Below are positions 8,838 to 12,167 of a DNA stretch of 20,000 bases, one piece after another. Below the pieces are notes generated by a model. That model ran no database searches and was not told the origin of the DNA. It was given only the letters and a program-made list of their open reading frames with translations. The translations under genes were made by a program, and so were the position numbers. The DNA is taken from IMG/VR virus record IMGVR_UViG_3300029787_000004, one strand, 5' to 3'. The stretch's first letter is position 1. Every line of letters starts with the position of its first letter. This DNA comes from an uncultured virus (IMG/VR IMGVR_UViG_3300029787_000004) (Duplodnaviria; Heunggongvirae; Uroviricota; Caudoviricetes).

Positions 8838-9212
8838 ATGGAACTAAAAGATTGGATGAACTCTATAAATTATAATAAAGAGGACATCGCCACAAATGAA
8901 ACAATTGGCTCTTACCCTCCATATATCGTTAATCGCTGTTTGTCTAGTCACGTTGACAGTATCATGTTCTCTAATGAGATGAATCTTAATCATCATCTCT
9001 CCAAAGACATGCAATATAAATTTTATCTAAATAGTCTGAGGAAAAGGAAGAGATTCTCTCCTTGGATAAAGAAAGATAAAGTAGAAAACCTTGATATTGT
9101 CAAACGGTATTATGGTTATAGTAATGAGAAAGCATCTCAGGCACTAAAAATTTTATCTAAACAACAACTGGATTACATTAAACAACGACTTGATGTTGGA
9201 GGAATGAGATGA
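8838..9212 (+). CDS. gp62: Clamp loader small subunit
   Basis: YPPYIVNRCLS, NEMN, RKRKRFSPW, YYGYSNEKA; directly upstream of regA. Confidence 0.93.
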   Translation: MELKDWMNSINYNKEDIATNETIGSYPPYIVNRCLSSHVDSIMFSNEMNLNHHLSKDMQYKFYLNSLRKRKRFSPWIKKDKVENLDIVKRYYGYSNEKASQALKILSKQQLDYIKQRLDVGGMR

Positions 9213-9637
9213 GTACCGTGAGAGAGCCTGAGGTTCAGTGGTCACAAGACCAAATGATTGAAGTTAGGTTGAGAGAACCTGATGATTTTCTTAAAGTAAG
9301 AGAAACGCTAACACGTATTGGTGTTGCGTCTCGTAAAGAGAAGAAGTTATATCAGTCATGTCACATCCTACATAAACAGGGACGATATTTTATCGTTCAT
9401 TTTAAAGAACTGTTTGCATTGGATGGGAAGCACGCTAATCTTACTCCTAATGACGTTCAGCGTAGGAATCGTATTACTCAACTTCTTTCTGACTGGGGTC
9501 TCATTGAGGTAGTCAATGCCGAGACTATTACTGAGATTGCTCCTTTGAATCAGATCAAGGTGCTTTCCTTCAAAGAAAAAAATGAGTGGACGTTAGAGAC
9601 TAAGTATAATATTGGCAAAAAGAAAACTCAGGAATGA
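9209..9637 (+). CDS. regA: RegA translational repressor
   Basis: DDFLKVRETLTRIGVAS, LYQSCHILHKQGRYFIVHFKELFALDG. Confidence 0.97.
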   Translation: MSTVREPEVQWSQDQMIEVRLREPDDFLKVRETLTRIGVASRKEKKLYQSCHILHKQGRYFIVHFKELFALDGKHANLTPNDVQRRNRITQLLSDWGLIEVVNAETITEIAPLNQIKVLSFKEKNEWTLETKYNIGKKKTQE

Positions 9638-10191
9638 AGAGGCAAATCTTAAAAGATTGTGTATATAAAACCAGAGTAAAAGATCACAAAGAAGTAAAAA
9701 AGGTTATCCTCAACTATATTGAGGACCAACCTTTTCTTGCTCAAAATTCTTACATTGATAATATATCAAAGTTTGATTGGCCTCAGGGTAGTGATTTTGA
9801 GAGACCATGGGTGCAATATTTTTTACCTCACTTCGAAAAAAGTATAGGAGAACTATGTGCTAACATCGGAGTTTCTCGTATAAGATCTTTGGATGCAATT
9901 TGGTTTCAACAATATGTTGAAGGAAGTTCTCATGGATGGCATATACATGATGGTCAATTCACTGGTGTATACTATTTGGAATTACCAGAAAATTCTCCAC
10001 GCACCGAGTTCATGCATCCGTTCACTGGAAATATTGATAAGGTAAAAGCAAAAGAAGGTGACATTATATTTTTTCCAAGTCACATCATACACAGAGCATC
10101 CTCAAACAAAAATCAAAGAAAGACAATAATTAGTTACAACTTCAATATTCTAGATCGTATCATGAGAAGTGATTTAGAAAATACATTATAA
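9634..10191 (+). CDS. Putative 2OG-Fe(II) oxygenase
   Basis: WFQQY...HGWHIH...FTGVYYL...EGDIIFFPSHIIH...RKTIISYN double-stranded beta-helix pattern. Confidence 0.8.
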   Translation: MKRQILKDCVYKTRVKDHKEVKKVILNYIEDQPFLAQNSYIDNISKFDWPQGSDFERPWVQYFLPHFEKSIGELCANIGVSRIRSLDAIWFQQYVEGSSHGWHIHDGQFTGVYYLELPENSPRTEFMHPFTGNIDKVKAKEGDIIFFPSHIIHRASSNKNQRKTIISYNFNILDRIMRSDLENTL

Positions 10192-10194
10192 ATA
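10187..10194 (+). promoter_or_regulatory. T4-type late promoter TATAAATA
   Basis: Exact consensus overlapping the oxygenase stop codon. Confidence 0.8.
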
Positions 10195-10195
10195 A

Positions 10196-10275
10196 ACCTG
10201 AGACCTTTCGTGCGGTCTCTACGAAAGTCGGAACACCATATAAAGAGGTTCGGTTACTACCGTTCCTCTTTTTTT
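10196..10275 (+). ncRNA. Candidate late small RNA 1 (~80 nt), family not recognised
   Basis: Bounded by TATAAATA and an intrinsic terminator; GC-rich structured core GAGACC/GGTCTC and CTTTCGT/ACGAAAG; no ATG-initiated ORF. Confidence 0.6.
10242..10275. terminator. Intrinsic terminator, probably bidirectional
   Basis: AAAGAGG-TT-CGGT-tact-ACCG-TT-CCTC followed by T7 on +; followed by TTTATAT on -; lies at the convergence with the minus-strand operon. Confidence 0.8.
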
Positions 10276-10406
10276 ATGCCATCAGTTGATACAGAATTGA
10301 TGAGCAACCAGAATTCTTCTGGGTTTTTGAGTGCCCACGTAGCAATTTTTTCTGCTGTCTTCTTATCTCCAAACATGTTTTGGAGTTTCATGCAAGGTAC
10401 TAGCAT
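10257..10406 (-). CDS. Hypothetical 49-aa protein (MLVPCMKLQNMFGDKKTAEKIATWALKNPEEFWLLINSVSTDGIKKEER), not in ORF track
   Basis: ATG 1 nt after the stop of the 70-aa ORF; GAGAGGA SD upstream; stop falls in the terminator loop. Confidence 0.55.
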   Translation of the reverse strand: MLVPCMKLQNMFGDKKTAEKIATWALKNPEEFWLLINSVSTDGIKKEER

Positions 10407-10407
10407 A

Positions 10408-10620
10408 TTATTTCCTCTCTGCCTTCTCTACAAAAGAGAGCATATTGTCTGCTACTTGTTTTATTTCCACCTCAGTTGGAAATGTTGGATAGGGACCTGT
10501 TTCTTCTCCTTTTTCTTGCAATGATTGCCAGCGATTTACTTCTGCTTCGTGTCTATTTAATAGACGGGTTTCTGCATTCTGGAAAACTTCCCAGCGCATT
10601 TCATATGGATTAAAACCCAT
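10408..10620 (-). CDS. Small helical hypothetical protein (PYE.R...YPTFPT..EI...A....FV type)
   Basis: Strong SD AAGGAG 6 nt before ATG; own late promoter; protein-like composition. Confidence 0.85.
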   Translation of the reverse strand: MGFNPYEMRWEVFQNAETRLLNRHEAEVNRWQSLQEKGEETGPYPTFPTEVEIKQVADNMLSFVEKAERK

Positions 10621-10730
10621 TTGATACTCCTTTTGTGTTATTATGATCTGTGTCTGTCTGTATGTTGTGTGTACCCTGTGTGTATGCCTTGCGGCGGTTG
10701 GGATATACTTACATTCACAAATCTTGTTTC

Positions 10731-10738
10731 TATTTATA
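10731..10738 (-). promoter_or_regulatory. T4-type late promoter TATAAATA (minus strand)
   Basis: TATTTATA on +; about 110 nt upstream of the ATG at 10620. Confidence 0.8.
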
Positions 10739-10774
10739 AGGTAGAGTTTTCCACACCTACTTTTTTATAAGATG

Positions 10775-10844
10775 TGCTACTATATACTACGGATGCCTTT
10801 GGGGTCCACAAAACACAAACTCGCTTTTAAAGGAGCTAAGAATC
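10775..10844 (+). promoter_or_regulatory. hsp20 promoter and structured 5' leader
   Basis: TGc-TACTAT extended -10 (10775-10783) overlapping late-like CTATATA; hairpin 10791-10807; CA linker; CTCGCTTTTAAAGGAG hairpin containing the SD. Confidence 0.65.
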
Positions 10845-11297
10845 ATGGGTAACCTTAATACCTACAAATATGGTGCGTCTGATCTTCCTGCGTTGATGGA
10901 ACGCCTAAATAAACATAGTATTGGTATGGATCAATATTTTGACAAACTGTTTACTCTACAAGAAACACAGTCAAACTATCCCCCATACAATTTAATTCAA
11001 GTTAGTAGCACAGAGTCGCTCCTTGAATTAGCACTAGCAGGATTTAAAAAAGAAGAAGTAAATGTCTACACACAAGACGGTAAACTCTTTGTCGAAGGAC
11101 AAAGGGAGGATACCGAATCCGAAAAAACCTATGTCCATAGAGGAATGGCTCAACGATCTTTCACTAGATCATGGACCCTTAGTGACGAGACGGAAGTTAG
11201 ATCAGTTAGCTTTGAGGATGGGTTGCTGAGTATTACACTTGGTAGAATTGCACCAGAACATCATCAAAGAAAGGTTTGGTTTGGAAATACTGACTGA
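10845..11297 (+). CDS. hsp20: Small heat shock protein (alpha-crystallin domain)
   Basis: NYPPYNL, LELALAGF, YVHRGMAQRSFTRSWTL, FEDGLLSI. Confidence 0.96.
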   Translation: MGNLNTYKYGASDLPALMERLNKHSIGMDQYFDKLFTLQETQSNYPPYNLIQVSSTESLLELALAGFKKEEVNVYTQDGKLFVEGQREDTESEKTYVHRGMAQRSFTRSWTLSDETEVRSVSFEDGLLSITLGRIAPEHHQRKVWFGNTD

Positions 11298-11974: not shown

Positions 11975-12167
11975 AGAGGTGGGTTCTGAATTAGGAGAAC
12001 CAGATTGTAAATTGATTGAACCCTATGTGGTAGAATCAACTGGTATTGCTCCGTGGTTGATGGAGCACACTATTCAGAGTGAATTTATGATTAGTTCTGA
12101 CAAAGTTTTGACGATGGCAGAACCAAATAATCAACTACTTGAAAAATATAAAGAAGTTCTTTCTTAA
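11925..12167 (+). CDS. Second, shorter Sm-like paralog
   Basis: Same layout: MIKLLVL...LISQIEEV...LIEP...APW...EFMISSDKVLTMAEP...EKY; TAATG-coupled to gp43. Confidence 0.6.
   Translation: MIKLLVLTNQILISQIEEVGSELGEPDCKLIEPYVVESTGIAPWLMEHTIQSEFMISSDKVLTMAEPNNQLLEKYKEVLS

Follow-up and report, generated by a model that had tools for sequence, protein, structure and literature searches.

Positions 10187-10275, on the + strand of a 20,000-nucleotide (nt) stretch of DNA from the uncultured virus IMGVR_UViG_3300029787_000004 (the window in what follows), very probably hold a real, independently selected small RNA gene. With moderate confidence, we read it more fully as encoding a structured RNA of about 75 nt that is non-coding and stands alone, is made from a late promoter and acts in trans through invariant elements. 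Marine Synechococcus and Prochlorococcus lose a large share of their cells to T4-like cyanophages, and the window is part of such a cyanomyovirus. At the level of sequence comparison the small RNA reading is well supported, and the element appears to found an undescribed family of phage small RNAs, whose loop and tail are strongly constrained. Its features, all on the + strand, are the following.

10187-10194, +: late-promoter motif TATAAATA (family form NTAAATA), overlapping the oxygenase stop codon
10200-10219, +: 5' hairpin (helix 1), arms GAGACC 10200-10205 and GGTCTC 10214-10219, from folds and covariation
10206-10213, +: 8-nt loop of helix 1, UUUCGUGC
10205-10211 and 10221-10227, +: possible helix 2, CTTTCGT with ACGAAAG, a perfect 7 bp in the window lineage
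10219-10222, +: CUAC, conserved, adjoining the 3' side of helix 1; UAC stands between loop and CGGAA in 90 of 95 variants
10221-10227, +: ACGAAAG, the 3' strand of helix 2, specific to the window lineage
10228-10234, +: single-stranded tail motif UCGGAAC, its invariant part CGGAA at 10229-10233
10242-10275, +: intrinsic terminator, with an interrupted hairpin (10242-10271) and a 7-T run (10269-10275), from folds

The promoter, the strands of both helices and the terminator had been proposed in a first-pass annotation of this DNA, and all are present at these positions. So is the GC-rich core it described, 10196-10240 (45 nt) having 51% G+C against 38% for the window.

The element is widespread among cyanophages. 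A record search with a 121-nt query matched the core in 233 cyanophage records, at a single place in each; the matches were confined to 10188-10237, the longest covering 10188-10278, and the flanks were unmatched. All BLAST matches came from Synechococcus or Prochlorococcus phages, plus two records titled just 'Marine virus', and the closest available record carries the element at 98% identity. In IMG/VR, three different patterns each returned at least 120 loci. Two of these scans were anchored on TAAATA, TTCGTGCG and CGGAA, with the window stem type excluded. Among the loci collected, the anchor was matched by 108 distinct combinations, of which the 95 with at least four pairs beside the loop were used as variants; most of the other 13 have neither CUAC nor a terminator and match by chance. 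Exactly one strong copy was found by model search in each of five complete genomes, and divergent forms occur in Bellamy, S-SM2, Syn19, S-T4, S-SM1, P-SSM4 and others. Among 80 regA-centred IMG/VR loci, the element was detected in 19, no more than 2.5 kb downstream of regA (13 strong matches and 6 weak ones, these being of the divergent type), and none was detected over that distance in the remaining 61. A weak match in Syn9 (L456, 58084-58126), probably not related to the element, lies shortly before a gene and combines a late-promoter motif with a 5-bp hairpin that has GGAAC in its 8-nt loop.

The RNA from 10200 to 10275 folds at -25.4 kcal/mol (z = -3.97) into a 5' hairpin, an open middle and the terminator, and the z-scores for RNAs of 76-83 nt range from -3.7 to -4.0. 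Six divergent members were folded and all gave the same arrangement. The interleaved-repeat pattern of the core occurs once in the window and in none of 200 shuffles. Base pairs were counted on 32 distinct hairpins of 22 nt, namely all those with an 8-nt loop, aligned without gaps. One locus without the other features (L255) was left out and another (L004) was replaced by the identical window row; MAFFT alignments misregister the variable stem arms, and the counts were not taken from them. Both sides have changed in five of the six pairs of helix 1. Such double changes fill 44 cells, against 14.6 in shuffles, and none of 500 shuffles was as high. Paired cells amount to 94.3%, against 71.9% in shuffles (0/500 as high) and 19-56% with the partner slid, a percentage that is partly built in, as the rows had been picked for at least four pairs beside the loop; the variety of pair types is not a product of this selection.

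That variety is large. The stem types include GAGACC/GGUCUC, GUGCC/GGCAC, GUGCU/GGCAC, GUGUC/GGCAC, GUCGC/GCGAC and GUCAC/GUGAC, then GAGAUC/GAUCUC, GACAUC/GAUGUC, GAUAUC/GAUAUC, GCGAUC/GGUCGC, GAGUGACC/GGUCACUC, and more. U.G cells in helix 1 number 8, 4 and 2, and on the opposite strand they would be C.A mismatches. Wobbles are thus tolerated on the + strand only, which indicates that the + strand RNA is the selected molecule. In S-PRM1 (L126:1477-1540), the 5' arm of the hairpin nearly duplicates the loop (UUUCGUGC-U-UUUCGUGC), which looks like the result of a local duplication that rebuilt the stem.

The loop is near-invariant, UUUCGUG, with the family form (N0-3)UUCGUGC; its last bases are altered or paired in P-SSM4-type and a few other members. 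When 2.9 million viral contigs were scanned for elements deviating from the consensus at loop C10 or G11, 44 and 35 matches came back, all of them chance. After the stem, the tail runs in a constant order: (N)CUAC, one to six bases that are mostly A or U, and CGGAA, preceded by U or A and followed by C, U or A. The distance from stem to CGGAA is 4-11 nt across relatives. CGGAA is present in all 120 IMG/VR loci listed for the interleaved-repeat pattern, which did not require it, as well as in 20 model matches behind regA. Its flanks vary (UCGGAAC in 55, ACGGAAU in 19, UCGGAAA in 14, and others), and it is unpaired in six of six folds of divergent members. In the divergent type D (L129:3490-3566 and other loci), CGGAAUAU is flanked by a direct repeat, ACGCUAC ... 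ACGCUAC.

Upstream of the hairpin, the promoter motif keeps its distance. In the 120 IMG/VR loci listed, collected with a pattern that contains no promoter, the end of TAAATA lies 5 nt from the hairpin in 118 and 4 nt in 2, a fixed spacing in unrelated loci that is beyond chance. The base preceding TAAATA in these loci is A in 98, C in 21 and G in 1. By the rule for T4, where transcription presumably starts about 6 nt past the motif's last A, the first nucleotide would be G10200, the first G of the hairpin. The cyanomyovirus late promoter is reported as NATAAATA (PMC2984593). The family motif equals this published promoter, the agreement being at the level of the motif only. Judged by this motif, the element appears to have its own promoter at a fixed distance, as is expected of a stand-alone small RNA gene.

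At the other end, a terminator (a hairpin of -7 kcal/mol or lower, followed directly by at least four T) is found in 281 of 288 distinct members. It sits 22-45 nt past CGGAA and is built from 162 different hairpin sequences among these 288, for which the predicted RNA length is 58-81 nt, with a median of 74. A simple terminator scan missed the terminator of the window because of its internal mismatches; the fold reveals it. The first-pass annotation had seen no credible open reading frame (ORF) here, and this holds: the unit has no ATG, and its sole ORF, starting at GTG and spanning 10210-10524, crosses the terminator and is then antisense to another ORF. In addition, a spacer varying from 4 to 11 nt breaks any frame, so the stretch is not coding. 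In several GenBank records, KX349293.1, KJ019156.1 and KJ019030.1 among them, the element is covered by an annotated coding sequence ('hypothetical protein', 'DUF680' or 'glutaredoxin'), probably through over-calling or through annotations that run on across a non-coding gene. Over the region corresponding to window 10160-10275, one locus (L102) shares with the window the end of the upstream gene and the promoter, but has a tail end and terminator of the kind found in another locus (L007). This pattern suggests, from the sequences compared, recombination within the conserved core of the small RNA gene.

In the window, PHROG matches identify a clamp-loader gene (8838-9209), regA (9209-9634), a 2OG-Fe(II) oxygenase gene (9634-10188) and hsp20 (10845-11294). 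An 836-amino-acid (aa) ORF starts at 12167, about 1.9 kb beyond the element, and overlaps the stop of the ORF upstream of it; from its position and the annotated gene order of S-RIM44 it can be read as the DNA polymerase gp43. The order is therefore clamp loader, regA, oxygenase, element, hsp20 and gp43, with the oxygenase gene separating regA from the element. The upstream ORF (9634-10191) has its TAA stop, 10189-10191, inside TATAAATA, and on the other side of the element are two small minus-strand ORFs (10257-10406 and 10408-10620). Elsewhere, the element stands directly behind regA with hsp20 next (S-RIM44), between a gp222-like gene and nrdC (S-RIM2, S-RIM8 and S-B64), or behind gp32 and facing opposing genes (P-HM2). 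The 29 nt upstream of the promoter fall into 43 clusters among the 120 IMG/VR loci listed. Relatives have a promoter motif immediately past the terminator, and then the sequence that in the window starts at 10791. Promoter motif, hairpin, tail motif and terminator thus move together into at least three gene contexts, in agreement with the stand-alone unit that had been proposed. In neither the window nor P-HM2 does a same-strand gene follow the element, which is consequently not simply a leader; in the window, as had also been pointed out, read-through would be antisense to the two minus-strand ORFs.

The first-pass annotation had recognized none of the wcaG, manA, glnA/Downstream-peptide or PhotoRC-II motifs, and in the 20-kb window no covariance model of Rfam 15 reached its gathering score either. 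At E values up to 10, the 301 nt around the element matched only RatA (18 bits) and GibS (17.8 bits), which is chance level and far below thresholds. The searchable full-text literature, which leaves subscription papers and supplements outside its coverage, contained no description of the element, its sequence included. In T4, the gene 43 translational operator is an RNA hairpin between regA and 43 that is bound by the DNA polymerase. The element can occupy the same syntenic place behind regA, in the order clamp loader, regA and, further on, gp43, and both have a short stem, an 8-nt loop and a single-stranded GGAA (9 nt behind the stem in T4). However, there is no sequence likeness (search model R1, with filters off, gave at best 9.7 bits, and none on the hairpin); the element has its own late promoter and terminator and does not overlap the start of gene 43 (12167); and it is also found far from regA. 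We take the parallel as an analogy and a lead, not as membership.

The non-coding RNAs of cyanophages named in two articles are CfrI, PhotoRC-II, wcaG, manA, glnA and abiF (PMC9964418, PMC12197685). One of these articles also describes λ OOP (77 nt) and P22 sar (68/69 nt) as short phage RNAs with their own promoter and terminator (PMC12197685). The element is of the same size class and is likewise a stand-alone unit squeezed between genes, with antisense read-through in the window. OOP and sar are cis-antisense to a fixed neighbour, whereas the element keeps its sequence while its neighbours change. CfrI of S-PM2 is presented as the first antisense RNA reported in T4-like phages (PMC2984593). 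It too is a non-coding RNA of a T4-like cyanophage, but it is about 225 nt long and runs antisense to psbA and to a gene for a homing endonuclease, and S-PM2 gave no match to the element. Yfr1-type small RNAs of cyanobacteria consist of two hairpins around an invariant unpaired motif. This architecture is echoed by the 5' hairpin, invariant single-stranded motif and terminator hairpin of the element, whose motif nevertheless differs and whose gene is viral; no Yfr family of Rfam was matched at E values up to 10.

According to the reading we favour, the NTAAATA promoter would be read by the RNA polymerase modified by phage gp55 and gp33, which would start the RNA at the first G of the hairpin, and the intrinsic terminator would end it about 75 nt later. 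The ends of the RNA would be shielded by the 5' hairpin on one side and by the terminator on the other. Between the hairpins, two invariant unpaired elements would be displayed, the loop UUUCGUG(C) and the tail made of CUAC, an A-rich spacer and CGGAA, and late in infection the RNA may act in trans with both as contact surfaces. The argument for a late small RNA gene combines a published promoter motif, a fixed spacing, a strand-specific stem, a freely varying terminator and, in two contexts, no same-strand gene behind it. Two invariant unpaired elements imply a conserved partner, and a sequence kept while its neighbours change points to a partner in trans. As to how the RNA works, our tentative ranking is base pairing with a conserved RNA of host or phage, then binding of a protein, then a role as cis leader.

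Besides the selection built into the pairing percentage, several points weigh against this reading. In four phage genomes, a crude screen for duplexes at the 77 start regions orthologous in all four yielded no consistent target, and anti-seed words are not enriched there; word matches within the window are uninformative for a target. The frequency of TATAAATA in the window is near chance (2 observed against 1.3 expected), and TAAATA frequently provides the stop codon of the upstream gene, a second possible cause of its conservation. Where nrdC follows directly, the unit could double as a late leader of nrdC. The element is not universal in the group: the model search gave no convincing match in Syn9, S-PM2, P-SSM2 and S-SKS1, an absence that is not proof, because model R1 is dominated by the window type and scores the divergent type D at only 17-20 bits. 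As for expression, a 151-nt contig from an RNA library, belonging to a relative with regA directly upstream, covers 10188-10275; this is weak evidence, since DNA carry-over is possible, and the RNA-library data consist of contigs only, which show no transcript start, end or abundance and in which uncovered stretches carry no information.

The first-pass annotation had proposed that the core is two-state or pseudoknot-like, pairing through either of two helices, and had named covariation of both as a check. Helix 1 does covary, as described above. Helix 2 is not conserved: it reaches at least 6 Watson-Crick bp in 5 of the 95 distinct variants, all of the window stem type, and at most 4 bp in 89; it has a C.A mismatch mid-helix in S-RIM2, and its 3' strand is absent in P-HM2, S-RIM8, S-PRM1 and P-SSM4. 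A conserved two-state or pseudoknot core is therefore not supported, helix 2 being confined to one lineage. In the window RNA, helix 1 has -9.5 kcal/mol and a pair probability of 0.79, against -5.8 kcal/mol and 0.21 for helix 2, so that by these calculations a minor second state is thermodynamically possible in the window lineage, where helix 2 is a perfect 7 bp with about 0.21 of the ensemble, without being a family trait. It is still conceivable, though in our view quite improbable, that the core works as a compact pseudoknot or bistable switch, either through helix 2, which most lineages lack, or through pairing of the loop UUUCG with the distal CGGAA. The latter can form in all members; UUCG and CGGA are complementary and invariant, they are the sole consensus pairs kept by RNAalifold on a rough alignment of 27 members, and with CGGAA as partner the linkers of 0-3, 0-3 and 4-11 nt (the last A-rich) would probably be sterically acceptable for an H-type knot. 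But with both sides invariant the covariation term is 0, no natural variants at loop C10 or G11 were found in the contig scans, the helix would have just 4-5 bp with one wobble, and in type C the loop starts with A for U without compensation.

An alternative that keeps the same small RNA but has it bind a protein, as a decoy or sequestering RNA, rather than pair with RNA is one we consider unlikely while giving it real weight; by analogy with the T4 gene 43 operator, the candidate would be the phage DNA polymerase. Loop and tail are frozen while the stem changes freely, which is typical of sequence-specific protein sites, and no RNA target emerged in the four phage genomes screened. The regA-43 intergenic RNA of T4 has a 5-bp stem, an 8-nt loop and GGAA 9 nt later, and in the element the stem has 5-8 bp, the loop again 8 nt, and CGGAA comes 4-11 nt past the stem, with GGAA one base later; the element frequently lies directly behind regA. 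Yet the T4 region shows no sequence likeness (best R1 scores 8.5-9.7 bits, none on the operator), the element is followed by a terminator without any start codon behind it, gp43 is about 1.9 kb further on, and many phages carry the element far from both regA and gp43. A more specific form of this idea, that the element is a free-standing descendant or analogue of the T4 operator hairpin, made late and titrating the DNA polymerase, or some other conserved protein of replication or translation, is a long shot resting on that analogy; if true, such a decoy would contribute to the infected cell's change from replication to packaging. Improbable, too, is a cis module in which the late promoter and a leaky terminator form a leader or attenuator, possibly controlled by a ligand or protein, for downstream hsp20 or nrdC. 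Promoter, structured leader, terminator and gene do make an attenuator layout, and a Shine-Dalgarno (SD) sequence with ATG lies within 45 nt past the terminator in 11 of 289 distinct sequences, 8 of them without an intervening promoter motif (the nrdC context). Against this, a new TAAATA or TATAAT lies within 60 nt past the terminator in 233 of the 289, the next genes are on the opposite strand in the window and P-HM2 with the element still fully conserved, no anti-terminator pairing is conserved while the terminator sequence varies freely, and no Rfam riboswitch matches; a cis leader role is plausible only where nrdC directly follows (the 11 of 289). We give very little credence to the element being merely the structured 3' end of the upstream operon, a stabiliser with terminator, or a site acting at the DNA level. 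It is always at the end of the upstream gene, and TAAATA often contains the stop codon; but that gene differs (regA, 2OG-Fe(II) oxygenase, gp222-like or gp32) while the TAAATA spacing stays exact, covariation with strand-specific U.G pairs argues for a + strand RNA, and a mere stabiliser needs no invariant loop and tail.

Some observations concern the region downstream of the small RNA gene. Between its terminator and the hsp20 leader, window 10257-10790 forms a 0.5-kb cassette with the two minus-strand ORFs, of 49 and 70 aa. Its minus strand also carries TATAAATA, at 10738-10731; in relatives, almost nothing separates the terminator from the sequence that starts at 10791. The end of the 49-aa ORF falls within the terminator loop. 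Neither ORF has a PHROG match, and the 70-aa ORF has an annotated homologue, 49% identical, in Synechococcus phage Sf-CH1b. The 5' leader of hsp20 (10791-10844) opens with a conserved hairpin, GGAUGCC-loop-GGGUCC, whose tetraloop is UUUG in the window and UUCG, GAAA or GUAA in relatives; a conserved ACAAAACACAAACUCGCUU stretch follows, then SD and the ATG at 10845. Just upstream of this leader, relatives have TATAAATA or a TATAAT motif. The leader could be an RNA stabiliser or thermosensor-like. Proteins 68-75% identical to the cyanophage Hsp20 are encoded in three records of metagenome-assembled genomes (MAGs; L575-L577), assigned to Thermoplasmata (a 5.2-Mb 'chromosome'), Formosa and Acidibacter, and these copies are likely cyanophage DNA binned into the assemblies. 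The hsp20 search of genome contigs returned only MAGs with phage-like hsp20 and distant Hsp20s, and no cyanobacterium.

For annotation, the element is a clean marker, several records calling a 'hypothetical protein' over it. For the biology of T4-like cyanophages, a late small RNA gene at this place would add a single-copy, stand-alone small RNA that hundreds of isolates and metagenomic contigs have retained, in phages infecting both host genera. With its constraint concentrated on about 15 unpaired bases, it may offer a compact, easily mutated handle on the control of late infection.

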